From a plasmid: 64,000 nt of DNA. Position 1 is the first letter of the stretch. Each line of letters begins with the position of its first letter. Below the pieces are notes generated by a model. That model saw only the letters and a list, made by a program, of their open reading frames with translations. It was not told the DNA's origin and ran no database searches. The position numbers and the translations under genes are program-made. The stretch lies in the sequence record NZ_CP064874.1; one strand, 5' to 3'. Positions 41,836 through 63,989 of the stretch are shown in pieces.

Positions 41836-41895
41836 CGAAGATTCCCGCTTCCTGGTCGCGCTCGACCATCGACACGTTCAGCCAACCTAGCTGTT

Positions 41896-42858
41896 TCACG
41901 ACTCGTCTCTATTCACAGTGTCGGGGCCGAACCACTCGGGCGGGACGCCATCTGCCCACTGCTCCAGGGCCGAGTCGTCGATCGCGTAGTAGCCAGCAAC
42001 AAGGTGGCACGCCTTGTAGAAGATCAGGCAAGCGAGACGCACCTGCCAGGCCACCACGCCACGACCGACGGTCCAGGGTCGACGGGCTACACCGTCAATC
42101 TCTATCGGGATCGACTGCTTGTCGACGGTGAGCAGGGACGGGTGCGAGTAGTCCGAGAGCGAGTCGTAGAGAACCTTTGTCTTTCCCTCGAAGCACAGGT
42201 CTGCGAACGATGCAGCCGCGCCACCAAGGCTCGCCATCCCCTGTCCGGCCACAGTCCAGGTCTCGATCAGATCGGGAGAGGACAGGTCGATCTCAACGGC
42301 GGTCTCGCCGAAGATTGCCCTGGCCTCAGCGATCTTGGTGTCGCGGAGCACCTTCGCACGATTCCCGTGCCCTCTATCGAACTTGCCTGCTGTATACCGC
42401 TCTCGCCGTAGCGAGGAGATCGCCTCCAGGTATAGGCGGGCGACCCGCACCTCGCCGGCTTCCACCTGGACGCGCGGATCGAGCAGCCATGCGGCTCGTC
42501 CCGCGAACTCGAGTTCCGCGCGCACGAGCGGCCATAGCGCCACCGCAACTCGCCGCGCACGGAGCAGCGCCTCGACGGCGAGAAGCTGCTGGCTGATTGC
42601 ATCCACGTACAGCCCGGCGCGCTGACCTGCACCATGTTCGACATTAGCTGGAGCGTCCGGCTTCGCTTCACGAAACTGCCGGGCCTCGGTCGCCGCTGGC
42701 GAGCCGTTGGCGGGGAGTACCGCGAGTCCGCGCGCCATCTCCATCCACGCGAGCACAAGGTGGTGGCAGAGGTCGGCGTACGTATCCAACTCCGCGGCCA
42801 ACTCATCCGGCACGTCAACCCACGCGGTATCATTCTCTATCTCGGGTCCCTGGCTCAT
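41896..42858 (-). CDS. Hypothetical protein, 320 aa; a candidate accessory component of either neighbouring defence system.
   Basis: Clean ORF 7 bp downstream of the DUF499 stop; no domain recognised. Confidence 0.5.
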   Translation of the reverse strand: MSQGPEIENDTAWVDVPDELAAELDTYADLCHHLVLAWMEMARGLAVLPANGSPAATEARQFREAKPDAPANVEHGAGQRAGLYVDAISQQLLAVEALLRARRVAVALWPLVRAELEFAGRAAWLLDPRVQVEAGEVRVARLYLEAISSLRRERYTAGKFDRGHGNRAKVLRDTKIAEARAIFGETAVEIDLSSPDLIETWTVAGQGMASLGGAAASFADLCFEGKTKVLYDSLSDYSHPSLLTVDKQSIPIEIDGVARRPWTVGRGVVAWQVRLACLIFYKACHLVAGYYAIDDSALEQWADGVPPEWFGPDTVNRDES

Positions 42859-42864
42859 CGACCG

Positions 42865-45800: not shown

Positions 45801-46251
45801 GCTGGAGCCGCTTCTGGTCCTCCTCGAACATGAGTCGGCGGAACTCTCGACGCATCTCATCGGCCTTGTCCGCGTGCTGAGCAGCACCGATCGACCGGAG
45901 GATGTGCTCGCCGTCCATGAGCACCCGCTCGGTGCGCTCCGACGAGATTCGCTCTCCGTGCGCCCACTCCTTGCGGGCATCCCACAGTGCAGAGATCACT
46001 CGTTTGTCCTCGAAAGTGAGCTGCTCCTTGAAGACCTGATGCCACTGCTTGTCGAAAACCCAGAACAGGTACGCGGGGTCTGTGGGACTCGGTGAGCCGT
46101 CACGCCCGGTGAGGCCAGCCGTTCGCCCGACCTCGGCGGCCCAGCTGCCGCCGTGCTTGGCTTCAAGGAGCCCGATCATCCACGGGCCGAGCCCTTCAAC
46201 CACGAGGTCGAGTACCCGTCCAACGCGTTCCTTGTTTGAAAGTGCCGCCAT
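42865..46251 (-). CDS. DUF499-family AAA ATPase (HEPN-like N-terminus) of the DUF1156/DUF499/helicase defence module.
   Basis: Walker A 'TTFGGGKTHSLLAV'; ~1128 aa from Met-18. The track start 46302 would overlap the methylase 3' end by 50 nt. Confidence 0.75.
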   Translation of the reverse strand: MAALSNKERVGRVLDLVVEGLGPWMIGLLEAKHGGSWAAEVGRTAGLTGRDGSPSPTDPAYLFWVFDKQWHQVFKEQLTFEDKRVISALWDARKEWAHGERISSERTERVLMDGEHILRSIGAAQHADKADEMRREFRRLMFEEDQKRLQRAQERALSVQVDSTGLPAWRDVIEPHDDVARGTFELAQFAADLRQVHQGVAGPEYGDPVEFFGRTYLTRGLRYLLEQAIKRLSGGGGEPVIDLMTTFGGGKTHSLLAVYHAAAGVPAEQLLGMRELLDGIGVAELPASVNRAVLVGNDLSILGMPKPEGITVNTLWGELAYQLGGVDGYELLKRYDEQSVPPTTTALADLFEKYGPCIILIDEWVAYLRQLWSREKVAPAGTFDGHMTFVQSLTEAVKAVPTALLVVSLPASDVVRDMQGAETPTENEHEVGGTAGLEALRHLRSVIHRLESAWQPATIEESFEIVRRRIFKPFGREQDAARDLVVHKYMDHYVRYGSDVPSEVMQPGYRASMRTAYPIHPELFDRLYKDWSTLERFQRTRGVLRLMATVVYALWTSGDRSPMILPASIPLDNAKVFDELANHLDDSWKPIVDADVAGETSTANIVDSDIKILGRSMATKRAARCVFLGTAPMANLRNRDGSAATIRGIEQKRVVLGSTYPGDNPAHVADGLRRLGDLGKYMNRDQDRYWLSLQQTVAQIVQERADSYHEEQVFDELAQVVRQETDKGLFERVHRLPHGSIDVEDDPGIGLVIFGPDRPFSKRGRSVAEDAAIEFLTKRGTNARIHKNSLVFLAPEVDRIDILLNAVRQRMAWEYILENRDSLNLDQHNIKVAESRVAQQKQTVKDAIREAYRWILVPTQEPGAAEIELESILMNGDGTLAARVTKKADAGEFVVRTFSPSLLRMQINRLNLWREKPYVPLDVLVGYFSQYVYMPKVVQPKVVIDAVWHLDDALVVELDGFAYADSYEDGRFSGLTMKAPAAVRQGGLLVDPVIATHQIEADTRVTEGQSGEGEQGGTGTATGGSGTSSPGTDSGAPGTTTSSGGGRAAATAPTRFHATKNLTVNRVVRDAGQIYEEIVSHFVTAGVPVRVSIDIESEQLAKLSDDQRSAIRENLKTLGFGDDDWSMD

Positions 46252-46252
46252 G

Positions 46253-48927
46253 TCAGAAGAGCCCTTCCGCAGTCGTGCGTCCGTCCCCGCTGAGCCGAAC
46301 AAGTTCAGCCCAGGAGTTGATCAGCGCGTTGTACCGTTCCTGATCTGTGGTTCGACCTTTGCGTGCAGCAATATCGTGCAATCGGTAGGCCAGCGCCATC
46401 GCCGGGTCGTGTAGGTCGGACAACCGAGCCATCAACTTGGCCGAGGCGAGTTCGCCGCCACCGTCGATCAGGCGGTCGGCAAGGTGATGCACAGCCTCCC
46501 ACGCCGTCGGTCGCGAATCGTTCGCCGGACTCCACTGCCTGTCCAAGCCACCATTTCCGAGAAGTTGCACCTTATTGGCCTGGCTTGTTGCCACTTGAGC
46601 ACGAACGACGTCATCAACACTTATTCCCAGAGGGCGCACAGCCTTATCAGCCTCGCCGAATGCTGCCGGCGCCCAACCGTGGCTCTCCCACCAACGAACT
46701 GCGAACCGCGATTCCGGATCGAGATCGCCTTCCTGCTCGTCGAGGACCTCGGCGAGTGCTTGATTGATCATCCGAAGCGCTTGGTCCACCTGAACGCGCT
46801 GGCCTGCTTGGTCAAGGACCGCCCTGTAGCGGGAGAAGATCTGCATTCCCGGGCCCATGGCGGCCTGAGCGAGGTCGACGGGGAGTATCGATGCCGCCTG
46901 AAGGTCGCGGACGGCGGTCGACAGCTCACGCCGTAGGGCACGGTTGAAATCGCTGAGCGAGCACGTGAGTGATTCGACACCCCTGGGCCGGCAGACCATG
47001 ACGATGTATGAAGCCACGGCGTTGGTGCCCGCGGAGACCATACGTGCTTCTGTAGTTCCGCGGATCGGCCATGAACCAGTGATCTCGAGGTCGGCGGCGA
47101 TCATGGCGGAGAGGATTGCCGACCACCGAGTCTCCTCGCCCTTTCCCGCCTTTTGCTCTTTTGAGGCATAGACCACAAGCATCGGAAGGCCCGGTGCCGA
47201 CGACCTTTCGAGGTTCCCGAAGGTCTCGGTAAACCCCTGAACGAAGTAGTTCGTCGCTTCCTGCTTGCTGTTGCCATGCCGCGAAGCGACTGCAGTTAGC
47301 TCGCCTGCCTTCGGGGCGGCAACAGTCGAGTAGAGGTCGGGGTGCACCTTTCGTAGCGCTCTCCGATGCCAAACATAGAAGAAGTCCGAGATATCCGCGT
47401 ACCCAATCGCGTCGAAGTACGGCGGATCCGTGGCGACAAGTCCCGGTTGGTCAAGTGTTGCGACTCGAGCGTCCGCCCTGCGAACGGCGGCGGGCGCGCC
47501 GCCGAGCGCTGCGTACGGCAACGCTCGGAGCATGGTCTTGACCATACCGAGCCAATCCCCGACCGATCCTCCAAACACGTTGACCTCAGGAAAATCCCAG
47601 GTCATCGGTAGGTTGTGTGTTGAAAGCGCTGCTTCAGCCTTTGCCTGCGGTTGAACGCGCCAAATGGCCATTGACGAGGAGAACTGCGCCATCTTGCCGA
47701 CAGCGAGACCGAGCAGCGATGTGACTGCCGTCGCCCACTCGTGGTCACCGCCGTCCGCCAGGATCCGGTCGTAAACCCCGGCAACCAGGTCCGCGAATGT
47801 CGCGAGCGTCAACTCCTGGCGGGGTTCATCAGCGAGCTCCACGTTTCCATCCCATAGAGGCCGACGCGGATGCTCTGCCCCTCGGTGTTGATCGGTACGT
47901 CGTCCGACTCGACCCGTGACGCGATCGAGGCGATCGCATCCATCTCTTCCGCCAGCGGTTCCCGATACACACGCCTCTTGCCGCGCATCGTTACGACCGC
48001 TGTCATCCGAAGGCCTAGTCGCCCTGCCTTGCCTTCTCCGCGGAGATAAGGTCCGTCGAGGGTCGAACCGCAGTTAGCGCATGAGAAGACGCCATCGCCG
48101 ATCTTCAGCGAGCTAGCAGGGCCCCCACCCGTCTGGCCGGAGACCACCTTGAGCTGGATGGAGCCAGATTCAGCGCGAATGTCGTACCAGGCCAGGTCCC
48201 CGCCCTTCTTGGAGATCCAGTTCGACGTGAGTAGCGGTGTCGTCGCCCCGCAGGCGGGGCTCGGACATGCCGCCGTGCGTGCCCATAGCCATGCGATCGG
48301 TGTTTCGCCCGCCGGCCACGAGTAGGCCGAGCCAAGGCGCTCGAGAGCCCGCTGCTCAATCTCCTTCGCGTAGAACGTCACATCATCAACTAGACCTTGC
48401 AGCGGATGTCCCGTTCCAAGGCTAAAGAGTCCATCGCTGACCGCCTCAGCAATGCCCTGCCGCCCGGCCATCGCCGGAACTATAGAGGCAATTGTTCGTG
48501 AGATGAGCACCGGAACCGGATTGAGATCGGAGCCGTACGCCGGGAGGCCGAGTCGCTGTGCCTCTATGAGCGTGGAGCCGCCTCCACAGAAAGGATCCAG
48601 AACGGGTGGGACGCCGTTCGGGAACTGTCGCGCGAGCACGCGGCGCGCCTCAGACAGGTCGGTGTCGCCAGGGACGTCTGCGCCGCTGCTCACCATCCGT
48701 TTGATCAGATCCAAGAGATACACCCGCTGATTGTCGTCTTCCGGATCATCGACCAGTGCGGCGAAGAGAAGAGCGCGCCACGCGGGAAGAGGCATAGGCG
48801 CGAACCACTTATGCAGGTTGCGGATAGTCCCCGTCTTGCGGTCCTTGTCCGCCTTGCAAGCCGCGTTGATCTCGTCGAGGGGCAGCGCGACCTCGATCAG
48901 CTTCTTCTTTCGGGCTGTCTCGGTCAC
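46253..48927 (-). pseudogene. DUF1156-family N6-adenine DNA methyltransferase, split into two overlapping ORFs (47809..48927 and 46253..47842), indicating a frameshift.
   Basis: N-terminal half: 'KLIEVALPLDEINAACKADKDRKTGTIRNLHKWFA' and 'VLDPFCGGGSTLIEAQRLG'. C-terminal half: 'VATDPPYFDAIGYADISDFFYVW' (DPPY). The two ORFs overlap by 34 nt in different frames. Confidence 0.7.
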
Positions 48928-51900
48928 TGCTGGCTCATCTCCGTTGCGTCGTTCCAGAAGGGCTCCCAGTCGTATTCGACGCGCGCCGCGCGAGGATCGA
49001 TGGGCTGATCTATGGGGTGCCTCAGGTAGCGCACTGTCGTCGTGTCATCCTCCGCTACCTGGACGAGCGCGAGCACCGAGTGGTCGGCCTTGTTCAGCGC
49101 AGTGACCGCTTCCTGCCGGGTGAGCACGAAAGTGCGGCCGCCGACGACGCGGCCCTTCACCTCGATGAAGTCGAGACTCCGCCCGGTGTCGGACTCGATG
49201 TCGTAGCCGGGGTTGTTGTGGTGCATCTCTGTCGGATCGTGCCCGAGCGCGTGCTCGACTCGGAGAACGGCATCGACGGCCAGACGCTCCACCCGCGTTG
49301 TCTCCCTGGCACGGTCAGCTGCGCCTTCCGGGTCAGTCTGAGCATCCAGCCATCCCTGCGTGACGACTAGACAAGCGCCGGTCACCCGAGGCGGGCGAAC
49401 CGAGATGTCACGTTCTTGCTCAAGTTCTCGTAGCCGTCGGTCGAGTCGACGGGCCAGGGCCTCGGCCCGTTCCTGCATTTGAGATGCCGGGAGGCGGGTC
49501 TTCCTGCCCGCTCGCTCCTGTTCGCTCAGCTCGAAGGCACGGCGGTCCCAATAGTTGATCTCGCGAGTAAGGCGCTCGCGAACGAGGCGCTCGGTCTTGT
49601 CAACGCGCTCGATGGTGCGTCGGCTGACTTCGTCAGCGTGCTGCCGAGCGATCGTGACCGATGCCTCGCGAATGACGCGACGGTCTAGATCGGCTGCCTG
49701 TGCCCAAGGCTCACCGAGCAGCGGTTGGCTTGCCTCCACTTCCTCGTCAGTGGGGACCTCGAAGTTCGGGATCGGCGAGCCAGTGAGAGGCGTGATGGTT
49801 CCGTCTTCGTCGATACGGGCGTACTGGGCGCGACGCGACACGACACGAGGCTGCCCATCCTGCGCGATGCGTCCGTCGGTGACGTCGTGTTCGAGGAGGC
49901 TGACAACGTAAGGCTGAGTCGTCAGGTCAGAGCGGTCGACGAGGACCGCTCCGCGACGGAGCGCGTCGATGTAGCGGTCGGAGACGACGCTCATCGTGGC
50001 CGACATCAGCGGGTGGCCCGGGTGTAGGAGCGTCGCGAGGCGGTTGTTGCCGTCTACTCGGACGTACTTCGGGTCGAAGGTGACGCGGTAGTACTCGTCG
50101 ACCACGGGCTGGCCGTAGCCGGTAATGCGGTCGCGCTCCTTGATCTCGCCAGGCACTCGCTTGATCTCGAAGCGGTGGCTCTCGCGCATGCGGAGCTGCC
50201 CGCCCACGTCAGCGAACGCACGGTGAAAGAACGCCTCGACGTGGTGGGGCTGGAGGCGGGCCGCCTCGGCTCGCTCCATCTCACGTCTCATGTCGTCGAC
50301 CTCAGTGTCGCTCATCGCGCCGGGCACAAGCTGGTTCGCCTTCAGCAGCTCGGGGATGCCGTCGGCGATCTTGGGGTCGACGACCTCGGTGAGGTAGCGC
50401 TCGCGCTCCGGCCTGTTTGCCTCGCGGATAGCGGCGATCATCAGGTCGCGCAGTGCGTTGCCCTGGAAGAGCTGACCGAGGACGTCGTAAACGCGCCCGC
50501 CGAGCGTGGCGCGCTGCTCCTCGAGCTTCTCCAGCAGCCGCGTGTACACATCGCCCTCGCGGGTGTCATCGGCGACGAGCGACCACATGAAGCACGTGTT
50601 GGGCTGACCAATACGGTGCACCCGCCCGAAGCGCTGTTCGATGCGGTTGGGGTTCCACGGCAGGTCGTAGTTGATCAGCAGGTGGGCGTTCTTATGGAGG
50701 TTCACGCCTTCGCCCGCAGCATCGGTGGCGATGAGGAACACACAACGCTCGTTCTGCTCGAAAGTCTCCTTCGCCTTCTTGCGGTCTTCCCGCTTGGTAC
50801 CTCCGTGGATGGTGATCACGGCGTCGTCTCGGCCGAGGTGCTGAGTCAGACGCATAACCAGGTCGTCGAGGGTGTCCTTGTGCTCGGTGAAGATGATCAC
50901 CTTGCGACGCGCACCGGTGTCATCGCGCATCTCGTCGGTGTCGTCCAAGGTGTCGCGCAGGGCATCCCACTTGGCGTAGGTGGGTGACGATTTCACAGCA
51001 GACGACTTCACGAGGAGCCGATCGACGACGAGGATCTCGGTCTCGAGTTCCTCCGGCGTGCGTGCGGTCGTGGCTCCAGCGATCGCCTGGTCTTCGAGCG
51101 CCTCGCGTTCCTCGTCGGTGAGGTCTTCCAGGTCGTCCCAGTCCTCGGGCACATCGGGGGTGTCCGACTTCACTGCGGCGTACATGCGCGCTTCGCGCAG
51201 CTCGGACTCAAGGCGTGCCTTGCGGCGTTCGAGGGAGCGGTGGATCGCCGCGGGTGATGAAGCAAGGCGACGCTGGAGCGTCGTGAGCGCGAACCCGACG
51301 GCAGTCCGACGACGATTGTCACCCTCGATCGCATCGGCGCGGTTCATCTCGTCACGGACATAGTCGGTGACGGCGACGTAGAGGTCCTTCTCGGCCTGGG
51401 ACAGCTCGTACTTGACCGTGAACGCGAAACGCTCGGGGAACAGTCGCGTGCCCTCGAACGTACGAAGCTCCTCCTTGACCAGACGGCGCATGAGATCCGA
51501 GACGTCGACCTTGCGGCTTCCCTCCCGGGCGACGCCCTCGAAGCGGTCGGAGTCGAGCAGCGCCATGAAGAGCTGGAACTGCTCCTCTTTCCCGGAGTGG
51601 GGCGTCGCGGTCATCATCAACAGATTGCGCGCGTGTTTCCCCAGCTCCTCGGCCATCTGGTAACGCTTGGTCTTCTTGACCTCGTTGCCCCAGACCGTGG
51701 CCGACATCTTGTGGGCTTCGTCGAAGATGATCAGGTCCCAGTCGACCTCACGGGCCTTGTCGAGGATGCCTTCGCTGTTCCGCGCGAGGACGTCGAGTCG
51801 TGCTAGCCAGAGCCCGCCTCGTGCGAAGGGGTTGCCCTCGTGAAGGATCTTGTCGCGAGTGAGGCTCTCGAACTCCAGGTCGAACTTCTCCCGCATCTCC

Positions 51901-52412
51901 TCGTCCCACTGATCGACGAGCACCCCTGGCGAGACGACCATGACATTCGCCGCATCGCCACGGAGCAGGAGTTCCTTGATGAGCAGGCCCGCCATGACCG
52001 TCTTGCCGGCACCCGGATCGTCGGCCAGAACGTAGCGCAGCGGCTGCTTGTGGAGCATGATCTCGTAGACCGCGCGCAGCTGATGCGGCAGCGGCTGCAC
52101 GTCGCTGGTGCCGAGGGCGGCCTGCGGATCGAAGAGGTACGCGAGCTTCATCCGACGCGCCTCAGCGGCCAGGAGGAACGAGTTGGGGTCCGCATCGAAG
52201 CTGAATACTTGGCCGGCCACGACCTCGCGCACCTGCGAGATCGCGTTGGCGAAGACGATCTTCTCGCCAAGCCCGGTGTCGGTACGATATGCCACGTTCG
52301 CCGAGTCGTCAGTGAGGCGCTCGACGGCAACGATCTTCACCGGATCAGGCCCTGCGAGGCCGGTCACGGTCGCGCCAACACGGACGAGATCAAACATCGA
52401 TGAGGTCGTCAC
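48924..52412 (-). CDS. SNF2-family helicase with a C-terminal DUF3883-like domain; helicase partner of the DUF1156/DUF499 module.
   Basis: 'LADDPGAGKTVMAG' (motif I), 'LIIFDEAHKM' (DEAH), helicase-C region. C-terminal '...DIESDTGRSLDFIEVKGR...' block. Confidence 0.85.
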   Translation of the reverse strand: MTTSSMFDLVRVGATVTGLAGPDPVKIVAVERLTDDSANVAYRTDTGLGEKIVFANAISQVREVVAGQVFSFDADPNSFLLAAEARRMKLAYLFDPQAALGTSDVQPLPHQLRAVYEIMLHKQPLRYVLADDPGAGKTVMAGLLIKELLLRGDAANVMVVSPGVLVDQWDEEMREKFDLEFESLTRDKILHEGNPFARGGLWLARLDVLARNSEGILDKAREVDWDLIIFDEAHKMSATVWGNEVKKTKRYQMAEELGKHARNLLMMTATPHSGKEEQFQLFMALLDSDRFEGVAREGSRKVDVSDLMRRLVKEELRTFEGTRLFPERFAFTVKYELSQAEKDLYVAVTDYVRDEMNRADAIEGDNRRRTAVGFALTTLQRRLASSPAAIHRSLERRKARLESELREARMYAAVKSDTPDVPEDWDDLEDLTDEEREALEDQAIAGATTARTPEELETEILVVDRLLVKSSAVKSSPTYAKWDALRDTLDDTDEMRDDTGARRKVIIFTEHKDTLDDLVMRLTQHLGRDDAVITIHGGTKREDRKKAKETFEQNERCVFLIATDAAGEGVNLHKNAHLLINYDLPWNPNRIEQRFGRVHRIGQPNTCFMWSLVADDTREGDVYTRLLEKLEEQRATLGGRVYDVLGQLFQGNALRDLMIAAIREANRPERERYLTEVVDPKIADGIPELLKANQLVPGAMSDTEVDDMRREMERAEAARLQPHHVEAFFHRAFADVGGQLRMRESHRFEIKRVPGEIKERDRITGYGQPVVDEYYRVTFDPKYVRVDGNNRLATLLHPGHPLMSATMSVVSDRYIDALRRGAVLVDRSDLTTQPYVVSLLEHDVTDGRIAQDGQPRVVSRRAQYARIDEDGTITPLTGSPIPNFEVPTDEEVEASQPLLGEPWAQAADLDRRVIREASVTIARQHADEVSRRTIERVDKTERLVRERLTREINYWDRRAFELSEQERAGRKTRLPASQMQERAEALARRLDRRLRELEQERDISVRPPRVTGACLVVTQGWLDAQTDPEGAADRARETTRVERLAVDAVLRVEHALGHDPTEMHHNNPGYDIESDTGRSLDFIEVKGRVVGGRTFVLTRQEAVTALNKADHSVLALVQVAEDDTTTVRYLRHPIDQPIDPRAARVEYDWEPFWNDATEMSQQ

Positions 52413-53976: not shown

Positions 53977-54360
53977 TCAGCAGTTGACGCCGGCGCGGCC
54001 GTGGATACGCCCTGGCCGAACGACGTCGTCGTGTCCCGGAATGTAGGCAATCGCGCCGAGTCGGGACCAGTAGCTGATCAGCCAACGGTGCAAGAGATCG
54101 GTCTGCTCGCGGCGTTCGAGCAAGGTGCGGTCCGGGTCTTCGATGATGTCGTCCCAATCGGGGCTCGAGAACACGGCATCGATCAGCTCGGCGCACGATG
54201 GGCCGGTACCGTGTCGATCCCACCACGCGAGAGTCAGTCGCCCTGCTTGGGTTGCGTTCGTGGAGCCCCCGGGTTCTTCGATGGTCCCGATGAGTGCGCT
54301 GAGGTAGGGATCTTCGGCGGCCAGGACGAAGGAATCTTGGTTCAGTTCCGCCGCGCTCAT
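53977..54360 (-). CDS. Hypothetical protein (127 aa, 'MSAAELNQDSFVLAAEDPYLSALIG...').
   Basis: ATG 54360. The longer track ORF reads through the IS end and is rejected. Confidence 0.45.
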   Translation of the reverse strand: MSAAELNQDSFVLAAEDPYLSALIGTIEEPGGSTNATQAGRLTLAWWDRHGTGPSCAELIDAVFSSPDWDDIIEDPDRTLLERREQTDLLHRWLISYWSRLGAIAYIPGHDDVVRPGRIHGRAGVNC

Positions 54361-54432
54361 ACAGTGCAGAATGCCATACGGATTAGGGCGTGTCTGACAA
54401 AGGTTGAGGGGATCGGTTGAGACGCTGGAGCG

Positions 54433-54828
54433 GTGACGCGGTTTCGGTTGCTTACGGATGCTCAGTGGTCTCTGATCGATGGGATGTTGCCGAGGCCGAC
54501 GGGTCGCCCGGGTCGGAAGTTCTCGGACGCGCGGACGATGCTGGAAGGGATCATTTACCGGTATCGGTGCGGGATCGCGTGGCGCGATCTTCCTGCAGTG
54601 TTCGGCCCGTGGCAGACCGTGTGGACCTGGCATCGCAGGCTCGCGACCGAAGGCACCTGGGACTCGATCGTGCAGTCGCTGATCGCGCAGGCCGACGCCG
54701 AGGGGCTGGTGGACTGGTCGGTATCGGTGGATTCGACGATCACGCGGGCGCATCAGCACGCGACGAACACGAGTCGCCCCACAGGGGGCTGTATCGAATT
54801 ACACGAATCCGGGCGTCGAGCCGCCTGA
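54433..54828 (+). CDS. IS5-family transposase orfA (DUF4096-like).
   Basis: 'MTRFRLLTDAQWSLIDGMLPRPTGRPGRKFSDARTMLEGIIYRYRCGIAWRDLP'. Confidence 0.85.
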   Translation: MTRFRLLTDAQWSLIDGMLPRPTGRPGRKFSDARTMLEGIIYRYRCGIAWRDLPAVFGPWQTVWTWHRRLATEGTWDSIVQSLIAQADAEGLVDWSVSVDSTITRAHQHATNTSRPTGGCIELHESGRRAA

Positions 54829-54910
54829 TCATGCTATCGGCCGCTCCCGGGGCGGCCTGTCGACGAAGATCCACCAGCTCGTTGACGGGAAGGGGCTGCC
54901 GCTGGTCACG

Positions 54911-55327
54911 GTGATCACCCCCGGACAGGCCGGTGATTCGCCGATGCTGCTGCCCTTGCTGGATCAGCTTCGCGTGGGTCGCCCCGTCGGTCGCCCTCGC
55001 ACCCGCCCGGACGCGGTCCGGGGCGACAAGGCGTACTCGTCCCGCGCGATCCGGTCACGCTTGCGGGGGCGTGGGATCAAAGCCGTGATCCCCGAGCCCC
55101 GCGACCAGCAGGGGCACCGGAAGCGTCGCGGTTCACGAGGCGGAAGGCCTGTCGGGCTCGACACCGACGACTACAAGAACCGCAACGTGATCGAACGCCG
55201 GTTCTGCCACGCCAAGCAATGGCGAGGCCTCGCGACCCGCTACGACAAACACGCGATCACCTACCGCGCCGCCGTCCTCATCCACGCCGCCATCGCCTGG
55301 ACCAGAACGCTGTCAGACGCACCCTAG
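54911..55327 (+). CDS. IS5-family transposase orfB (DDE domain). Its frame extends upstream ('RSRGGLSTKIHQLVDGKGLPLVTV...'), consistent with a frameshift-fused transposase.
   Basis: 'GDKAYSSRAIRSRLRGRGIKAVIPEPRDQ...NRNVIERRFCHAKQWRGLATRYDK'. Confidence 0.85.
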   Translation: MITPGQAGDSPMLLPLLDQLRVGRPVGRPRTRPDAVRGDKAYSSRAIRSRLRGRGIKAVIPEPRDQQGHRKRRGSRGGRPVGLDTDDYKNRNVIERRFCHAKQWRGLATRYDKHAITYRAAVLIHAAIAWTRTLSDAP

Positions 55328-55439
55328 CCGGCTGGCCCTGAGTCCGATGAGACGTCGCACAACCGAAGGGATACGAGGCGGTCGCCCTGTCATGGTTCAC
55401 TCGGCGGCGCGCCGGGCGCCGCCTGGCGGAGCCGCCCTC

Positions 55440-57995
55440 TCAGCGGACGGGTTCGTCGGCGTGCCGGACGTCGTCCGACGACGCATCCCCGGCTTCCGTC
55501 GCCGCCCCGTGGATCGGATGGCTTCGCTCGAGCGCGGCGCCCTCGACGTCGACGTTCGGGAGGATCCGATCGAGCCAGCGCGGCAGCCACCACGCCTTCT
55601 CGCCGAGCAGGTGCATGAGCGCGGGGATCAGCAACAGCCGCACCACGAACGCATCGAACAGCACGCCGATCGCGAGGCCGAAGCCGAGCGGTCGCACGAG
55701 CGCCAGGTGCGAGAAGATGAACCCGCCGAACACCGACACCATGATGATGGCCGCCGCGGTGACCACCGCTCGCCCGTTCCGTAGCCCGGCGACAACCGCC
55801 GTCCGGGCCGGCACCCCGTGCACGAACGCCTCTCGCATTCCGGTCACCAGGAAGAGCTGGTAATCCATCGCGAGACCGAACAGCACGCCGATGAGGATGA
55901 TCGGTGCGAAGTTCAGCACCGGTCCGGGGGTGTGGACGCCGAACACCGGCCCGAGCCATCCCCACTGGTAGATCGCCACCACGGCTCCGAGTGCGGCGAA
56001 CAGCGACAGCACGAACCCGGCTGTCGCGATCAGCGGCACGAGGATCGAGCGGAACACCAGCACGAGGATGAGCAGCGACAGCCCCACGACCAGCGCGAGG
56101 TACACCGGCAGCACGCCGGCGAGTTTCTCGGAGATGTCGATGTTGCCGCTGGCCTGGCCTGCCACCCCGAGCTCGATGTCTCCGATCGGCGAGAGCTCGC
56201 GCAGGTCGTGCACGAGCTGCTCGGTCGATTCGGTGGACGGTCCGCCGATCGGCACGACCTGGAAGGCGAGGAAGTCGCGGTCCTCGGACACTCCGACCGG
56301 CGCGACCGCGACCACGCCGCCCTGCTCGAGCAGCTGACCGGCTAGGTCGGCCTGTACCGCGACGACGTCGTCCTCATCGATCGGGGCCGGCAGCGCGGCG
56401 GTGACGAGCAGCGGTCCGTTCTGGCCGGCTCCGAATGCCTCGGCCGCGGACGTGTAGGCCCGGTACTGGCTGGAGTCGACGGGCTCGGATGACCCGTCGG
56501 GCATGCCGAGCCGCATGGAGAGCGCCGGGATCGCGATGATGAGCAGCGCGCCGACGGCGAGTGCGGCGCGCGCGAACGCACGCGAGGTCTTCATGGGCTT
56601 CAGCTCGGGGCGAGCGTGCGATTCGTGGCCGATCTGGCCGCGAGCCCGCCGATTGACGATCCGGAGGCCGATGATCCCGAGCATCGCAGGCGTCAGGGTC
56701 ACCGACAGGAGTACCGCGACCAGCACGCATCCGGCCGCGACCGTTCCCATGACGCCGACGAAGGGGATGCCGGTCACGTTCAGGGCGAGCAGTGCGACGA
56801 GCACCGTCGAGCCTGCGAAGACCACGGCGTTGCCCGACGTGCCGTTCGCGAGGGCGATGGATTCGTGCACGTCGACACCGGCGAGCACTTGCCGTCGATG
56901 GCGGTTGATGATGAACAGCGCGTAGTCGATGCCCACGGCCAGTCCGAGCATCATGCCGAGCACGGGGGTGGCCGACGACATGTCCACGACGCCCGAGAAG
57001 GCCAGCGACCCGGCGACGCCGACGCCGACGCCGACGAGTGATGAGACGATCGGCAGCAGCGCCGGCAGCAGCGCGCGGAACATGATGACGAGCGTGAGCA
57101 GCGCGAGCGCGACGCCGACGATCTCGCCGATGCCGATGAGTCCCTCGACCGCGGTGGCGATCGTCGCCGAGTAGTAGTCGACCTGCACCCCGTCGATTTC
57201 GGCCTGGTCGAGTTCGTCCGAGACCGCTTCCACGACCTCGGACGGGACGGAGAACACGTCGTCCTCGAACATCACCACGCCGATCGCAGTGGCACCGTCC
57301 TCGGACACGGTTCGGATCTCCGAGGCGGCATCCATGAGCACCCGCGCGTCATCGAGCTGAGCGCGCTGCTCGGCGAGTTCGCCGGCACCGGCGTCCAGCT
57401 CGCCGCGGCGATCCTCGAGCTGAGCGGCACCGGCATCGAGCTCGGCCTGCTGCGCGGCGAACTGCGCCGCTGCGAGCGCGTACGTCCCCGCGGACTTCGC
57501 TTCAGCGATGGCCGCGTCGAGTTGCGCCTGAGCGGCCTCGAGCTGGGTTCGCGCAGCCTCGATCTGAGTGGAGCCCTCGTCGAGCTGGCGCTGCGCTTCG
57601 TCGAGCTGGGCCGCGCCGGCTTCGAGCTGCTGCTCCTGTTCGGCGCGATCGGACGTCGCGACGAAGGGGTCGACCACATCGGCCACGCCGTCGATTCCGT
57701 CGATCTCGGCCAACATCGCGGAGATATCCCCCTGCTGGGCCTCGGTGAAGTCGGATCCGTCCTCCGTCCGGAACACGATGGTGCCGGTTCCGCCCCCGAG
57801 TTCCCCCAGTTCTTCGGTGAGCCGCTCGGTGACGCGCTCGGTCTCGGTGCCCGGGATGCTCATGCTCGACGTCAGCGTGCCGCCGAAGGAGACGAAGGCT
57901 CCGACAGCCAGGGCGAGTGCGGCGATCCAACCGGCGACCACGGCCCACGGTCGGCGCGCGGCGAATCGTCCGACACGGTAGAGGAGTTCTGCCAC
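55440..57995 (-). CDS. MMPL-family (RND-like) membrane transporter.
   Basis: 851 aa, two 6-TM bundles separated by soluble/coiled-coil loops; typical MMPL N-terminus. Confidence 0.85.
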   Translation of the reverse strand: MAELLYRVGRFAARRPWAVVAGWIAALALAVGAFVSFGGTLTSSMSIPGTETERVTERLTEELGELGGGTGTIVFRTEDGSDFTEAQQGDISAMLAEIDGIDGVADVVDPFVATSDRAEQEQQLEAGAAQLDEAQRQLDEGSTQIEAARTQLEAAQAQLDAAIAEAKSAGTYALAAAQFAAQQAELDAGAAQLEDRRGELDAGAGELAEQRAQLDDARVLMDAASEIRTVSEDGATAIGVVMFEDDVFSVPSEVVEAVSDELDQAEIDGVQVDYYSATIATAVEGLIGIGEIVGVALALLTLVIMFRALLPALLPIVSSLVGVGVGVAGSLAFSGVVDMSSATPVLGMMLGLAVGIDYALFIINRHRRQVLAGVDVHESIALANGTSGNAVVFAGSTVLVALLALNVTGIPFVGVMGTVAAGCVLVAVLLSVTLTPAMLGIIGLRIVNRRARGQIGHESHARPELKPMKTSRAFARAALAVGALLIIAIPALSMRLGMPDGSSEPVDSSQYRAYTSAAEAFGAGQNGPLLVTAALPAPIDEDDVVAVQADLAGQLLEQGGVVAVAPVGVSEDRDFLAFQVVPIGGPSTESTEQLVHDLRELSPIGDIELGVAGQASGNIDISEKLAGVLPVYLALVVGLSLLILVLVFRSILVPLIATAGFVLSLFAALGAVVAIYQWGWLGPVFGVHTPGPVLNFAPIILIGVLFGLAMDYQLFLVTGMREAFVHGVPARTAVVAGLRNGRAVVTAAAIIMVSVFGGFIFSHLALVRPLGFGLAIGVLFDAFVVRLLLIPALMHLLGEKAWWLPRWLDRILPNVDVEGAALERSHPIHGAATEAGDASSDDVRHADEPVR

Positions 57996-58129
57996 GCGAG
58001 AGGCCTTTCATGAGGAGACGAGACGAGGGCGCACCTACGAGCCACCACCGAGGATAGCCGACATTTGTCGGAAATCGGAGCGGCTGGGTTCTGCGTGGCG
58101 TCTCCCCATCCCGCTGGCACAATCGACGC

Positions 58130-58696
58130 ATGGATGCCCGCGTCGTCCGCACCCGACGGTCCCTGCAGGAGTCGCTGTTCGCCTTGGCTCGCGAGCGGCC
58201 GCTCGAGGAACTCACCGTCGCCGACATCGTGCAGCGGGCAGGAGTGAATCGGAGCAGCTTCTATCAGCATTACGCCGACAAGGACACCCTTCTCGCCGAT
58301 GCCATCGACACGGCGGTCGAGCAGGCAGGGACCTTCCTGCCTGAAACGATCACCGCACCGGACGGCCCGCAACGCGCGCTCCTCGCCTACCTGCGACACA
58401 TCGACGAGCATGTGGCGGTCTATCAGCGCGTGCTCGGACGCCACGGCTCGGCCGCGGTGGCGTTCAGGTTGCGTGATCGCATCGAGGCCGTTGCCCGCGA
58501 GGGCCTCGGGCGAATGGGCACGCACGCATTCGAAGGGATCCCCCTCGACGTCGTCAGTGCCGGCATCGCCGGCTCAGCACTCGGCGTCATCGAGGCGTGG
58601 CTCGCGCGCGACCCCCGACCGCGAGTCGAGACCGCTGCGGACTGGGTATGGCGTGTGCTCGTCGGCGTCGGCGATGCAATGGAGGAGGGGCGCTGA
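58130..58696 (+). CDS. TetR-family transcriptional regulator, divergent from the MMPL gene.
   Basis: 'LTVADIVQRAGVNRSSFYQHYADKDTLL' HTH. Confidence 0.85.
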   Translation: MDARVVRTRRSLQESLFALARERPLEELTVADIVQRAGVNRSSFYQHYADKDTLLADAIDTAVEQAGTFLPETITAPDGPQRALLAYLRHIDEHVAVYQRVLGRHGSAAVAFRLRDRIEAVAREGLGRMGTHAFEGIPLDVVSAGIAGSALGVIEAWLARDPRPRVETAADWVWRVLVGVGDAMEEGR

Positions 58697-58719
58697 CGGT
58701 ACGCCCCGTCCACAGCCGG

Positions 58720-59664
58720 CTAGGGTGCGTCTGACAGCGTTCTGGTCCAGGCGATGGCGGCGTGGATGAGGACGGCGGCGCGGTAGGTGATCGCGTGTTT
58801 GTCGTAGCGGGTCGCGAGGCCTCGCCATTGCTTGGCGTGGCAGAACCGGCGTTCGATCACGTTGCGGTTCTTGTAGTCGTCGGTGTCGAGCCCGACAGGC
58901 CTTCCGCCTCGTGAACCGCGACGCTTCCGGTGCCCCTGCTGGTCGCGGGGCTCGGGGATCACGGCTTTGATCCCACGCCCCCGCAAGCGTGACCGGATCG
59001 CGCGGGACGAGTACGCCTTGTCGCCCCGGACCGCGTCCGGGCGGGTGCGAGGGCGACCGACGGGGCGACCCACGCGAAGCTGATCCAGCAAGGGCAGCAG
59101 CATCGGCGAATCACCGGCCTGTCCGGGGGTGATCACCGTGACCAGCGGCAGCCCCTTCCCGTCAACGAGCTGGTGGATCTTCGTCGACAGGCCGCCCCGG
59201 GAGCGGCCGATAGCATGATCAGGCGGCTCGACGCCCGGATTCGTGTAATTCGATACAGCCCCCTGTGGGGCGACTCGTGTTCGTCGCGTGCTGATGCGCC
59301 CGCGTGATCGTCGAATCCACCGATACCGACCAGTCCACCAGCCCCTCGGCGTCGGCCTGCGCGATCAGCGACTGCACGATCGAGTCCCAGGTGCCTTCGG
59401 TCGCGAGCCTGCGATGCCAGGTCCACACGGTCTGCCACGGGCCGAACACTGCAGGAAGATCGCGCCACGCGATCCCGCACCGATACCGGTAAATGATCCC
59501 TTCCAGCATCGTCCGCGCGTCCGAGAACTTCCGACCCGGGCGACCCGTCGGCCTCGGCAACATCCCATCGATCAGAGACCACTGAGCATCCGTAAGCAAC
59601 CGAAACCGCGTCACCGCTCCAGCGTCTCAACCGATCCCCTCAACCTTTGTCAGACACGCCCTAG
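58720..59664 (-). mobile_element. IS5-family (IS427-group) insertion sequence, copy 2, identical to copy 1 and inverted.
   Basis: orfB (58720..59136) and orfA (59219..59614) proteins are identical to copy 1. Ends CTAGGGTGCGTCTGACAGC ... CCTTTGTCAGACACGCCCTAG. Confidence 0.85.
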
Positions 59665-60080: not shown

Positions 60081-60500
60081 TCAGCTGCCGCGAGGCGTGG
60101 GTGTGGGGGAACGCTTCATCGGAGTGACGTTGCGCGTTGGGTCTTCACCGCGGAGCAGCTGATTCTCGACGTGCAGCTCGGCCACCGCGGTCGCTGCGAT
60201 CGTGAGTTGCGCCTCGAGTTCGCGAATTCGCGCGCGGAGGCCCGCGATCTGTGTCCCACGGTCCGCGAGTGATCGGTTGAGCGCTTCGAGTTCACGATCG
60301 CGCGGCTGGGTTCCGCCTGCCCGCAATGCCCACTCTTCGAGCACGGACTTCGCGCGGTTCATCGTCGCGCGGCTGACACCGGCTTCGCGGTAGAGGTTCT
60401 CCTTGATGAGACGGCCGTCGGTGCGCACTGCTGTGCCAGCGAAGAGCCGCTCCATCGCATCGCGGAGCTTGCGTTCCGACGTGCTGATGGGTTCAGGCAT
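60081..60500 (-). CDS. TnpC-like small protein (HTH plus coiled coil), third gene of the recombinase trio.
   Basis: ATG 60500 overlaps the upstream recombinase stop by 8 nt. 'LYREAGVSRATMNRAKSVLEEW' HTH, then a heptad-like Leu/Glu-rich tail. Confidence 0.5.
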   Translation of the reverse strand: MPEPISTSERKLRDAMERLFAGTAVRTDGRLIKENLYREAGVSRATMNRAKSVLEEWALRAGGTQPRDRELEALNRSLADRGTQIAGLRARIRELEAQLTIAATAVAELHVENQLLRGEDPTRNVTPMKRSPTPTPRGS

Positions 60501-62598
60501 CCGTGAATCTCCTCGTGATCTTGCGTACGTCTTTGAGTTCGGCCTCGAGCTGCTCGCGATTGTGCGACGCCATGCTGCGGTCGCGGAGCTTTGCCACCAG
60601 ATCGCGCTCTTCGGCGACCCACACGGGCGCGTGTTCATCGGTCACGACCGAATTGCCGCAGGTGGTCGGCTTGCACCGGTTGGGGATCACACCGCTTGCG
60701 GCAGCCTCGGCAGACAGACCTTTGAGGCAGGCCGCCTGTTCCGGATCGCCGAGGCAGTGGTTGATCGTTCCCCACCGCAGCGTGCTGAAGCGGTCACGCA
60801 GCAGAGTGCGCAGGGTCCGCTCATCTCCGACCTTCACTGCGATGTCGACCTCGGCGGTGGCGTTCACGAGCTCGTCTCGGAAGCGTTGTGCGCCTGCGCC
60901 GGCGAGCTTGATGTCGTCGACAGAGTCGGACGACCACATGCCGACGAGGCGTGAGGCGACGGCCTCCTGCAGTTCGTGCTCGAACTCGGCGGCCCACTCG
61001 GGCGTTTCGCTCGCATACCCAGACGTTGTGCCGTTCGCTACGGCCCGACGCGCTGCGTGCTTCAGCTGGATACCGAGCGCGACTTCGCCATCCGGTTGTT
61101 GGGCAGTGATGACGGCCATCGTGCGTCGAAACATGTGCGGGGCGAGATGGAAGTGTGGGATCGGCTCGAAGCCGGCCTCTCGCCCAATGTCGTTGAGCTG
61201 GGGTATGAGCTTCTTCAACTCGTCGTGCCGGTCGAAGGTCACCAGTTGGCCTTCGCTCTTCTGGCTGCGTCGACTCGATCCGAAGACGGCTTCGCCCACC
61301 GCGAGCCGCTCGGCGACGCTGATCGCCTGTGCTACCGGCTCGATGATCCACCAGTTGCGGCGATGCGTTCCGCGCTTGCCTTTCCGTAACTGGGATGCGA
61401 CCGCGGGCGCACCGTAGAAGGTCGTGAGCGCTCCCTTCTTGATGCTCAGCAGCTCGGAGTCGCGCATCATCGAAAGTGCCGCACAGAAGACGTAGCACGC
61501 GTTGCGAAGAACCTTGAGTTGAACTCGAATCGTGGCCGGATCGAAGCCATCGATCCAAGGGCCGGTGGAGCCGTCGGCCTTCCGCACGTCCGTGATCTTC
61601 GAGCGCAGGCCACCGCGCGCAGTGGAGATCTCGCCGGCGTCGATGGCTCTGGCGATTCGTTCGCGTCGGCGCCGCACCTCACTCCGTGATGTCTCGGCGA
61701 ATAGGTGTTTGCTGTGGCCATCGGAAACGAGCAGCGATAGGAGAGTCCAGTGGATCTCACCTTCCGTGAAGCGGCCGGCGGACATGCGATGGAGGGGAAC
61801 AGTCGACCCGGCGGCGACGAGCCAGGTCTCGATTGCGTCGTCGGGATCGCGGACAGCACGGCGTTCCTCGGGTGGACGCTCGAGAGTCGACCATTTGTCG
61901 GCGGCCGCGAAGATGTCGTGCGAGAAGACATCGATGTACTGCCAGCAGGCGCGAAGTAGCGGCCACCAGACGTGAGGTGGGATGACGGGCGTGCTCAGCT
62001 CCTCGCTGAACTTCTGCCCGCTCAGCGCGATCGTGGTCGCCTCACCCCACGGGCGGAACGGGATCCCTCCACCTGTGATGACCCGGTCGTACTGGTGGAG
62101 CGCACGGACGGACTCAATCGCTGCGCGCGTGGAGGACGGGGGAATGCTCGGCTTGATGTCACCAAGGAAGCAGTCGAGATCCGCTTGGTGGAGCTCATTC
62201 AGGGGGACACTGTCGAGGTGCTCGGCATGCCAGGACGCGAATCTCTTGAGTCCGTCGAGTCTTGTGCGGATCGTCTTGGTCTGCGCGGGCGCGGCGGTCA
62301 GGTAGAGGCTCTGATCACGAAGGACCTGGTGTCCCGGATTGAGCATGGCCATCGCGATCTCGCGGGCGCGAAGATTCCAGTCTCCGGTGAACGCGCCGAA
62401 GAGCAGCACCGCTGAGTGGCGCCCCGCCGCGGGGTTCCAACCGAGTGCGCGCAAGTCCCAGCGGGAGTCGTCACCGAACGAAGAGACGGGGTACGACTCC
62501 TCTCGATAGTGATGAGGGAGCACAGATTGCTGGGCGCGCCAGTAGGTGCTGGCGGGGGCGAGTCTCGAGGCATGGCGTGCGGCAGAATCAAGACTCAC
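60493..62598 (-). CDS. Large tyrosine recombinase (Tn554 TnpB-like), 701 aa.
   Basis: Catalytic-region motifs 'MRDSELLSI', 'HLAPHMFRRTMA' (HxxR) and 'NGTTSGYAS' (Tyr). Start overlaps the upstream recombinase stop (ATGA). Confidence 0.8.
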   Translation of the reverse strand: MSLDSAARHASRLAPASTYWRAQQSVLPHHYREESYPVSSFGDDSRWDLRALGWNPAAGRHSAVLLFGAFTGDWNLRAREIAMAMLNPGHQVLRDQSLYLTAAPAQTKTIRTRLDGLKRFASWHAEHLDSVPLNELHQADLDCFLGDIKPSIPPSSTRAAIESVRALHQYDRVITGGGIPFRPWGEATTIALSGQKFSEELSTPVIPPHVWWPLLRACWQYIDVFSHDIFAAADKWSTLERPPEERRAVRDPDDAIETWLVAAGSTVPLHRMSAGRFTEGEIHWTLLSLLVSDGHSKHLFAETSRSEVRRRRERIARAIDAGEISTARGGLRSKITDVRKADGSTGPWIDGFDPATIRVQLKVLRNACYVFCAALSMMRDSELLSIKKGALTTFYGAPAVASQLRKGKRGTHRRNWWIIEPVAQAISVAERLAVGEAVFGSSRRSQKSEGQLVTFDRHDELKKLIPQLNDIGREAGFEPIPHFHLAPHMFRRTMAVITAQQPDGEVALGIQLKHAARRAVANGTTSGYASETPEWAAEFEHELQEAVASRLVGMWSSDSVDDIKLAGAGAQRFRDELVNATAEVDIAVKVGDERTLRTLLRDRFSTLRWGTINHCLGDPEQAACLKGLSAEAAASGVIPNRCKPTTCGNSVVTDEHAPVWVAEERDLVAKLRDRSMASHNREQLEAELKDVRKITRRFTDA

Positions 62599-63989
62599 AG
62601 GTGGACTCCTCGCTGAGCGATGGGGACGTGGACGACTGCGTCGAGATCGTGGGAGCGTTGGGCTCGCTCTCGCTCCGCCGGAGTGAACTCATCCAGGATG
62701 CGCTCGATGTTCCTGAGCTGCTGTCCATGGGTTGCCGCGAACTGGGCGGGCTCCATCTCGTTCTGGTGTCCGCGAAGGATCTCGCGATAGGCGAGGATTC
62801 GAGGCAGGTGGTCGGTGAACACGATCGCGTTGGGGCACGCGAAGCACATCGATGGCCGATGCTCGCATAGACGCCCGCTTCGGCCGTAGGGAGAGTCGTA
62901 CGGTGAGCTGCAGTGCGCGACGTTCATGGCTCGATCCGTCGACGTCGACTCCAACTCGGCTACCGCAGCCACCGCAAGCTCGGGTCGCTCACCAGCCCGG
63001 ATCGACGCAGCACTGGCCTTCACGAACACTGGGCCGCTGACACGGTCGAAGACCTGCTGTTGAGCTGCGTTGACCGCTGCGCCGGCCAGCACGTGAACTG
63101 TCGTCGTCTGCGCGTAGTGGCGCTGGTAGACGGCGATGCTGTGGTCATCGCCTGCCGCAATGTCGGCGCTTCGGAGCACCGCCGCTCGCACACTCTTGAC
63201 TGTCTTTCGCAGTCGGCGCGCGTCGTGAGGTCTGGAGATGGCAGGTGTGATCGACGTCAGAAGGGACGAGAACGAATTCGAGAACGAATCTGGGCGTACC
63301 TCAAGGCGTCTTGACGAAGTTCGGAACACGCTCAAGAACAGGGCGTCATGCACCGGCGACGGGCTGGCTTCCCTCAGTTCCCTCGCCCTGGAAGTCGCAG
63401 CGAGAACCCGCTCGATGAGATCGCCCGACTTCCATCCGCTGCCGCTGGCAGATCCGGACGTGGCGCAGCGTACGATCCGGCTGCGGTGGGCGCGGGCCTT
63501 GTACAGACGGACGCGTAGCGTGTCGGGGTCTGAGATGTCGATGTCGCTCAGCGAGACGTTCGACCACTCCTCGGGAGCGGCGCCCGTCTCGAGCTGCAGC
63601 AGCGTCCTGAACGCGACCAGGTCGTCGCTCGAGGGATAGAGATATGACAGCAATCGCCTGACAACCCGGCCGGAGCCTCCATACGTCGTCGCGTGTTCGG
63701 TTTCGAACGCCTCGTGCAGGTCGTTGAGGACGCCTCGGTCGCACGCCAGCATGGCCTCGCGCTCCACCATGATGCCGTCCGTCCGTCCCAGGTGGTGGAT
63801 GCCCCAGAGGATATCTTCCGCGCGTGACCACCCGTCACCGCGAGGATCGCGCCCGACCTCGAGCAGTTGATGTCCGATCGAGAGTCGCTCCTCCAGCTCT
63901 CGGATGCGGCTGCGGCAGGTATCACGAATCGCAAGACGCTCGGCATTCGAGAACTCGTCGAGAGGCGTCGCGCCGCCGCCCTGATGCAA
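62595..63989 (-). CDS. Large tyrosine recombinase (Tn554 TnpA-like) with Cys-rich C-terminal extension; 5' end probably beyond the window.
   Basis: 'RPHDARRLRKT' (HxxR) and 'HSIAVYQRHYAQ' (Tyr). 'CSSPYDSPYGRSGRLCEHRPSMCFACP' zinc-ribbon-like tail. ORF touches the window edge. Confidence 0.75.
   Translation of the reverse strand: MHQGGGATPLDEFSNAERLAIRDTCRSRIRELEERLSIGHQLLEVGRDPRGDGWSRAEDILWGIHHLGRTDGIMVEREAMLACDRGVLNDLHEAFETEHATTYGGSGRVVRRLLSYLYPSSDDLVAFRTLLQLETGAAPEEWSNVSLSDIDISDPDTLRVRLYKARAHRSRIVRCATSGSASGSGWKSGDLIERVLAATSRARELREASPSPVHDALFLSVFRTSSRRLEVRPDSFSNSFSSLLTSITPAISRPHDARRLRKTVKSVRAAVLRSADIAAGDDHSIAVYQRHYAQTTTVHVLAGAAVNAAQQQVFDRVSGPVFVKASAASIRAGERPELAVAAVAELESTSTDRAMNVAHCSSPYDSPYGRSGRLCEHRPSMCFACPNAIVFTDHLPRILAYREILRGHQNEMEPAQFAATHGQQLRNIERILDEFTPAERERAQRSHDLDAVVHVPIAQRGVHL

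Follow-up and report, generated by a model that had tools for sequence, protein, structure and literature searches.

The 64-kb stretch of plasmid DNA analysed here (NZ_CP064874.1; hereafter the window, to which positions refer unless a contig is named) contains a composite transposon of 5,276 bp at 54386-59661, in which two inverted copies of an insertion sequence (IS) of the IS5 family enclose a two-gene cargo. The cargo consists of a gene for an MMPL-family transporter and a divergent gene for a TetR-family regulator. Our best explanation, to which we give a probability of about 0.88, is that the IS5-family ends move this TetR-MMPL cargo as one element. A composite transposon had already been proposed in the initial annotation of the window, and that interpretation is now supported by the identity of the two IS copies, by the presence of the whole unit at multiple sites in different genomes and by the recovery of an exact empty site.

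A base-by-base comparison of the two arms (54384-55334 and 58713-59663) revealed an inverted repeat of 951 bp without a single mismatch, and identity drops off directly outside these limits. A perfect repeat of this length cannot be put down to chance. The repeat finder returned it as the single inverted pair within 50-64 kb, and the IS occurs in just these two copies in the window. The terminal inverted repeats delimit an IS proper of 939 bp: the left copy (IS-L), on the plus strand, spans 54386-55324 and the right copy (IS-R), identical but inverted and thus on the minus strand, spans 58723-59661. Solo relatives of the IS (L107, L109 and L111) served as the reference for fixing these ends. 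The remainder of the 951-bp identical run is accounted for by the flanking TA on each side and by 8 bp, GCCGGCTG, on the inner side. The orfB ends of both copies, which carry the right inverted repeat (IRR), point inward; the outer ends of the composite are therefore two left inverted repeats (IRLs), and both copies are transcribed toward the cargo. The initial annotation had described identical IS copies facing inward and had proposed aligning them base by base, which found them fully identical. Its dimensions (945 bp per copy, limits at 54383-59664) were essentially correct and are replaced here by exact ones. It had also reported a 3.4-kb cargo with an 851-aa MMPL transporter and a divergent TetR regulator; between the repeat arms we indeed find 3,378 bp that hold these two genes and nothing else, not even fragments of other genes. 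The G+C content of the unit is 68-70%, versus 63-65% in the flanking island.

The decisive evidence that this segment was inserted as a unit is the empty site. Contigs carrying it were located through a 701-aa protein encoded in the neighbourhood of the transposon (an exact protein look-up with the XRE neighbour gave no record). After subtraction of one TA and the 5,276-bp element, the window aligns without gaps to L102 (8,723 bp, 99.9% identity), as well as to L103 and L105. At the junction these three contigs have a single TA, in the context CATACGGAT-TA-GGCCTCATG, whereas the window has two copies of it, at 54384-54385 to the left of the element and at 59662-59663 to the right. In a further contig, L104, the site is occupied as in the window. 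Since the island is 99.9% identical with and without the unit, the insertion in the window must be recent.

The same unit is present elsewhere. An exact look-up of the MMPL protein returned contigs from 92 collection blocks, and every locus read has the same TetR gene and the same IS alongside the MMPL gene; BLAST of the 5,280-bp unit gave 99.95-100% identity in all loci. The initial annotation had suggested searching other genomes for this unit with target duplications of 2-4 bp, and the search yields at least six loci, with 2-bp TA duplications and with outer flanks that are all different. Besides the window itself (site A, GGAT-TA / TA-GGCC), the unit lies within a serine-recombinase gene in CP014313.1 from Microbacterium sp. 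PAMC 28756 (site B), between AhpC and an NmrA-like gene in PABQ01000049.1 and several marine contigs (site C), and at the stop codon (TAG) that ends an enoyl-CoA hydratase gene in SJYZ01000021.1 (site D). Sites E and F are half-junctions in marine metagenome contigs, located beside an isocitrate/isopropylmalate dehydrogenase gene and beside a WhiB-containing region, respectively; a scan of JGI metagenomes returned site E again only. TA adjoins the IS tips at all sites and is part of a C-TA-G target in five of the six, and the four fully resolved sites have TA on both outer sides. In silico removal of the unit and of one TA from CP014313.1 restores a resolvase/recombinase open reading frame (ORF) of 439 codons. 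An extended target consensus was also sought, and inspection of 16 half-sites gave none beyond C-TA-G. The tetranucleotide CTAG occurs 0.37 times per kb in 1.66 Mb (all fetched loci and the window), compared with about 3 per kb expected by our estimate from composition, and this rarity limits the available targets.

Could the same arrangement have arisen without movement of the unit through its own ends? Two independent insertions of the same IS might have come to flank a resident MMPL-TetR pair in a segment that never moved as a whole. Native divergent MMPL-TetR pairs without the IS do exist in relatives, and the TA duplication alone does not discriminate between the two histories, since each IS copy is itself flanked by TA on both sides. 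However, in the empty-site contigs the two IS copies are missing along with the cargo and there is a single TA, which refutes independent insertion; in addition, the identical 5.28-kb unit is found at no fewer than five other loci, and the cargo stands out as foreign to its hosts both in G+C content and by the gap in protein identity. We therefore consider this history very improbable. Scarcely more credible is that the unit spreads through homologous recombination or is carried along within larger islands. The window copy does lie within a mobile defence island with recombinase genes, and the copy in CP014313.1 is surrounded by recombinase and transposase genes, but at the four fully resolved sites similarity ends exactly at the IS tips with TA on either side, the flanks are unrelated and include housekeeping regions such as AhpC/RsgA/EPSP synthase, and the island itself is found without the unit.

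The least probable account is that the inverted IS pair is an assembly artefact, a repeat having been collapsed or duplicated. In the short-read metagenome contigs the cargo appears in both orientations beside the same flank (L012 versus L016, L004 versus L007, and also L002 versus L006), as assemblers generate around inverted repeats. Yet the same structure recurs in several independent assemblies and in a complete chromosome of 3.54 Mb (CP014313.1), and many contigs are exactly 3,378 bp long, which is the length of the unique interior and is expected from short reads around a real 951-bp repeat. The two orientations of the cargo reflect either real flipping between the inverted IS copies or ambiguity in the assembler.

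With a DDE transposase, short terminal inverted repeats and a 2-bp TA duplication, the IS belongs with the IS427-type members of the IS5 family. Its IRL (54386-54399, GGGCGTGTCTGACA) and IRR (55311-55324, reverse complement GGGTGCGTCTGACA) are 14 bp long and match at 12 of 14 positions. In IS-L, the transposase is encoded on the plus strand by orfA (54433-54828; 131 aa), corresponding to the DUF4096 N-terminal part (Pfam PF13340, 86.5 bits), and by orfB (54911-55327; 138 aa), corresponding to the catalytic DDE_Tnp_1 part (Pfam PF01609, and PF13586 or DDE_Tnp_1_2). Frame analysis points to a putative +1 frameshift site, GGG-C-GTC, on the same strand at 54811-54817: skipping one base at this site joins the orfA frame to the orfB frame and gives a protein of 297 aa. 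Public annotation of L001 and L002 calls the same transposase (895 nucleotides, 297 aa), and we infer that it is made by +1 frameshifting. The fused protein scores 250.9 bits against the NCBIfam model NF033580, 'IS5 family transposase', for which the cut-off is 110. Its best relative in the protein database is 85% identical, and the exact 297-aa transposase does not form a separate cluster there. Solo relatives of the IS, with 76-83% DNA identity, occur on a plasmid of Kocuria and in genomes of Microbacterium and Glutamicibacter. They share exactly the tips of the inverted repeats (CC, then TA), each with a TA duplication in C-TA-G.

The transposase reading frame has no stop codon inside the IS. 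The TAG that terminates orfB (55325-55327) is composed of the target TA and the G that follows it and, because the stop is built from the target TA, a stop codon is provided whenever insertion takes place at TA-G or TA-A. This was observed in the window at 55322-55327 and 58720-58725 and also in L107, L109 and L111.

In the mechanism we propose, the 297-aa DDE transposase would bind the two outermost IRL tips, and the whole 5,276-bp segment would be inserted at YTAG by a 2-bp staggered cut that duplicates the TA; the chemistry could be either cut-and-paste or replicative. Once installed, the cargo would be controlled by TetR, which would bind a palindromic operator in the 134-bp divergent region and keep the MMPL/RND exporter, presumably driven by the proton-motive force, switched off. 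A hydrophobic or amphiphilic ligand would then release TetR, and the pump would export that compound.

The first cargo gene (55440-57995, minus strand) encodes an 851-aa transporter of the MMPL family, within the RND superfamily (PF03176, 232.5 bits). The second (58130-58696, plus strand) encodes a 188-aa TetR-family regulator (PF00440, 39 bits), and the divergent partner is kept in native loci. The IS tips are reached 113 bp past the MMPL stop codon and 24 bp past the TetR stop codon. A hydropathy scan of the MMPL protein predicts 12 transmembrane segments in the 1+5 / 1+5 pattern of RND proteins. Its sequence matches MmpL3/4/5 chains, and its AlphaFold model (pLDDT 84.5) aligns with MmpL3, MmpL4 and MmpL5 in Foldseek with a TM-score of about 0.68 and a probability of 1.0. 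Within the first extracytoplasmic domain, residues 110-223 (window positions 57327-57668, approximately) are modelled as a confident antiparallel helical hairpin, with helices of 52-59 residues, which is kept in orthologs.

The divergent promoter region (57996-58129, 134 bp) contains an operator-like palindrome, TCCGACA-AA-TGTCGG in the MMPL orientation, identified by an inverted-repeat search at 58053-58076. The motif CCGACA-N2-3-TGTCGG is conserved upstream of native MMPL orthologs, where it is present twice in tandem (alignment A1); in the transposon (58040-58090), the MMPL-proximal palindrome alone is intact. A TetR_N domain, a divergent pump gene and a putative palindromic operator between the two are the elements of a TetR/pump module, and by analogy with such modules the cargo probably encodes a TetR-repressed, ligand-induced exporter. 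It may be a resistance or envelope-remodelling cassette, as the initial annotation had suggested. Defence-system models gave no match for the cargo.

What would such a pump export? A serious rival to drug or toxin efflux is that the cargo exports a lipid, a glycolipid or another envelope component, as MmpL3 and HpnN do. The closest solved relatives of the protein include the lipid transporter MmpL3, there is weak similarity to the lipid transporters HpnN and BstA, and the module is widely kept as a single-copy native locus in Microbacteriaceae and their relatives, as expected of a physiological function. However, inducible efflux classically has this layout of a stand-alone pump with a divergent TetR repressor beside it, the cargo is not accompanied by biosynthetic genes and the native neighbours vary. 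Moreover, two of the four substitutions seen among copies of the unit hit the repressor or the operator, as in efflux-mediated resistance (PMC5895659, PMC12136459). Export of an envelope component thus seems to us somewhat unlikely, if well worth keeping in view.

These four substitutions are the sum of the differences among all examined copies of the unit. The change L19S in TetR (position 58185, codon 19; window versus L001, PAMC 28756) affects a residue of the DNA-binding domain that is invariant in 14 orthologs. A G-to-A change at 58071 (window versus L002, L004 and L006-L010, that is, all Tara and PABQ01 copies) affects a conserved base of an operator half-site. The other two are a synonymous change in the MMPL gene and one change in an IS. 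The regulatory target hit by two of the four amounts to about 165 bp. Although such small numbers do not carry a firm conclusion, this suggests selection for derepression, in line with published MmpL-mediated resistance, where point mutations derepress the pump (PMC5895659, PMC12136459).

Among species-representative genomes, the closest MMPL proteins are found in Agromyces (73-76% identity), and the unit is absent from all of these genomes (best MMPL match 76%). In a collection of 5.8 billion proteins, identities fall from 100% directly to 78% or less, with Agromyces again closest; Microbacterium's own MMPL orthologs are 62-66% identical. Native loci in Agromyces, Demequina, several metagenome-assembled genomes of Microbacteriaceae and others associate the MMPL gene with the same divergent TetR gene (44-67% identical), and their remaining neighbours vary. 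None of 80 such loci has an IS5-type transposase within 8 kb of the MMPL-TetR pair. The initial annotation had held that conservation of this pair in relatives devoid of the IS would refute the composite transposon. Such pairs are literally what Agromyces, Demequina and others contain, but the case for mobility is left intact: at 78% identity or less to the cargo, they represent the source-type locus rather than a refutation. Judging from these comparisons, the cargo is a conserved, self-contained two-gene module that was taken up from an unsampled donor nearer to Agromyces than to the present hosts. Another MMPL homolog, P0012, found on short contigs only, was considered as a second captured module and rejected, its context being native and free of IS.

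Identical proteins are recorded from Microbacterium sp. PAMC 28756, Microbacterium sp. UMB0228, Microbacterium sp. NFH-22A-Y and 'MULTISPECIES Microbacteriaceae'; further sources are a Herbiconiux-labelled TetR variant and many Tara Oceans assemblies. For the window's island protein, annotated records exist from M. paraoxydans and from two strains of Microbacterium sp. None of the PLSDB plasmids carries the unit, distant IS relatives being the only matches there. The Tara Oceans assemblies with the unit (L004-L010, L012-L016 and L121) come from different stations, with insertions at sites C, E and F and one shared single-nucleotide polymorphism, and these copies could represent one widespread or contaminating multi-copy Microbacterium strain.

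The two inner junctions have more in common than the target dinucleotide. On the MMPL side (55325-55334) TA is followed by GCCGGCTG, and on the TetR side (58713-58722) CAGCCGGC is followed by TA; these 10 bp are reverse complements of each other, the 8 bp beyond the inner TA being identical at both junctions. We estimate the chance of such a match of the inner 8 bp at about 1e-4 for the given base composition. Joining the cargo ends through one TA produces CAGCCGGC-TA-GCCGGCTG, a perfect palindrome of 18 bp with the IS target CTAG at its centre. The 8 bp were considered as part of the IS and rejected as such, since the solo relatives end at CCC, then TA, with unrelated sequence beyond. A repeated palindrome serving as target of both inner insertions was likewise rejected, as no further copies were found: GCCGGCTAGCCGGC has no copy in the window with up to two mismatches, the exact 18-mer has none in 101 loci, and in native loci the sequence downstream of TetR or MMPL contains no palindrome centred on CTAG.

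How the cargo came to lie between these junctions may be read in several ways. A single event may have brought both inner IS ends into one palindromic site, provided that the cargo was circular or tandemly duplicated. Alternatively, two insertions may have taken place in two copies of a repeated palindrome, of which no such copies were found, or the IS may have been copied along with 10 bp of its flank, for instance by repair synthesis. A donor locus with CAGCCGGCTAGCCGGCTG present once, between tandem copies or on a circle, would point to single-event capture; two separate sites would point to independent insertions.

Some observations weigh against the picture of an active IS carrying a regulated drug or toxin pump. 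The shared inner 8 bp are not explained by simple independent capture through two insertions. Solo copies of the exact IS were found neither among the 24 contigs read, in which all copies are attached to cargo, nor in the JGI metagenome scan. The MMPL protein shares only about 19% identity with characterised MmpL proteins, is an ortholog of none of the characterised members and falls below every equivalog cut-off (160 bits versus 1400 for NF052608, the equivalog model of the trehalose monomycolate exporter MmpL3, and 148 versus 875 for the actII model). At this distance from characterised MmpL proteins, drug or toxin efflux is only one of several possible roles. Finally, a simple scan returned no sigma-70-like promoter.

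Documentation of composite transposons is good for Proteobacteria but much poorer for high-G+C Gram-positive bacteria, and MMPL/RND pumps are normally seen as fixed chromosomal genes. The nearest analogue known to us is Tn903, in which inverted copies of IS903, also of the IS5 family, flank aphA1. Tn903 and, more loosely, Tn5 and Tn10 share with the present element two inverted IS copies encoding a DDE transposase, a short passenger, and movement from the outermost ends with the duplication typical of the IS. Here, however, the IS is of the two-ORF IS427 type, probably expressed by frameshifting, the duplication is a 2-bp TA and not 9 bp, the host is a high-G+C Gram-positive bacterium, and the passenger is a regulator with an RND/MMPL pump instead of an antibiotic-modifying enzyme or tetA.

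IS427-type elements, with two transposase coding sequences, have been mentioned in mycobacteria, Rhodococcus and Arthrobacter (PMC9241763). Our IS resembles these actinomycete elements in its DUF4096 and DDE_Tnp_1 parts, its passing of the NF033580 threshold, its length of about 0.94 kb, its 14-bp inverted repeats and its TA duplication at CTAG. It differs from them in that the nearest stand-alone relative has 85% protein identity, while the exact IS is seen in the composite only. Wagner's analysis notes that cooperative IS pairs are short-lived (PMC1676026), and the zero divergence of the two copies fits such a short life.

For the cargo, parallels exist in M. abscessus, where the regulation of MmpS5-MmpL5 efflux by the TetR protein MAB_4384 was worked out experimentally (PMC5895659). 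In this system, as in that of MAB_2885 and its MmpS-MmpL pump (PMC12136459), TetR binds a palindrome upstream of MmpL, and point mutations affecting the DNA-binding domain relieve repression of the pump, with higher drug resistance as the result. In contrast, our module lacks an MmpS partner, its pump is about 19% identical to mycobacterial MmpL proteins, and it is carried by a transposon. The helical hairpin of the MMPL model is reminiscent of the coiled-coil of MmpL5 (PMC12501195), which is also a long antiparallel helical hairpin in the extracytoplasmic porter domain. The MmpL5 hairpin is a 196-aa insertion in porter domain PD2, whereas the present one, of about 115 aa (residues 110-223), sits in the first loop (PD1) and belongs to a bacterium that has no mycomembrane.

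The element is thus a classical composite transposon in kind, and what is new is the combination of an IS427-type vehicle, a Microbacterium host and an MMPL/TetR cargo; our literature search found no description of a composite transposon with MMPL cargo in Microbacterium. It provides base-level evidence, through the empty site, the several insertion sites and the near-zero divergence, that a regulator-plus-MMPL module is now moving between Microbacterium genomes. It also offers a tractable natural system for the export role of a widespread actinobacterial MMPL clade and for passenger mobilisation by IS427-type elements. A bolder and distinctly doubtful proposal is that this is the first transposon-borne MmpL-type efflux determinant, spreading among Microbacterium from very different sources and perhaps selected for derepression. 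The derepression idea comes from L19S and the operator-base change, which occur in independent copies, and from the retention of one of the two native palindromes. If true, the unit would represent, in Actinomycetes, a mobile cassette for tolerance of biocides or antibiotics. Entry of both inner IS ends into one palindromic site in a single event, as discussed above, may also have occurred, but we rate it as less likely still.

Some copies of the unit depart from the common form by more than substitutions. In one IS copy of SJYZ01000021.1 (L003, 8689-8750) orfA is disrupted by a tandem duplication of 31 bp (unit positions 388-418), the MMPL gene of L017 has a deletion of about 50 bp, and in L018 unrelated DNA is joined to the IS at position 555.

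A defence island adjoins the transposon (40288-52412), with an Hma system (HmaA at 48924-52412 and HmaC at 42865-46302) and AbiU (40288-41835). The gene for the methylase HmaB is split into 47809-48927 and 46253-47842 by a 1-nucleotide deletion in a C run near 47820; in the transposon-free L102, HmaB is intact (891 aa). An ISL3-family transposase gene is located at 38521-39840. To the right of the transposon (60493-63989; L102, 6694-12106) lie three consecutive tyrosine-recombinase-like genes of 497/470, 606 and 701 aa, which resemble a 'recombinase in trio' element. The insertion point (54360-54385; L102, 12928-12938) falls in codon 4 of a 138-aa gene as called in L102 or, with an alternative start of the same gene (127 aa), 22 bp upstream of it. 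Depending on the start, the insertion would have truncated this gene, or cut it and the genes downstream off from a promoter on the XRE side. In L106 (1-30) a different sequence (...CTCATAGCGTC) abuts the target TA used in the window, and it may belong to another element inserted at the same spot.

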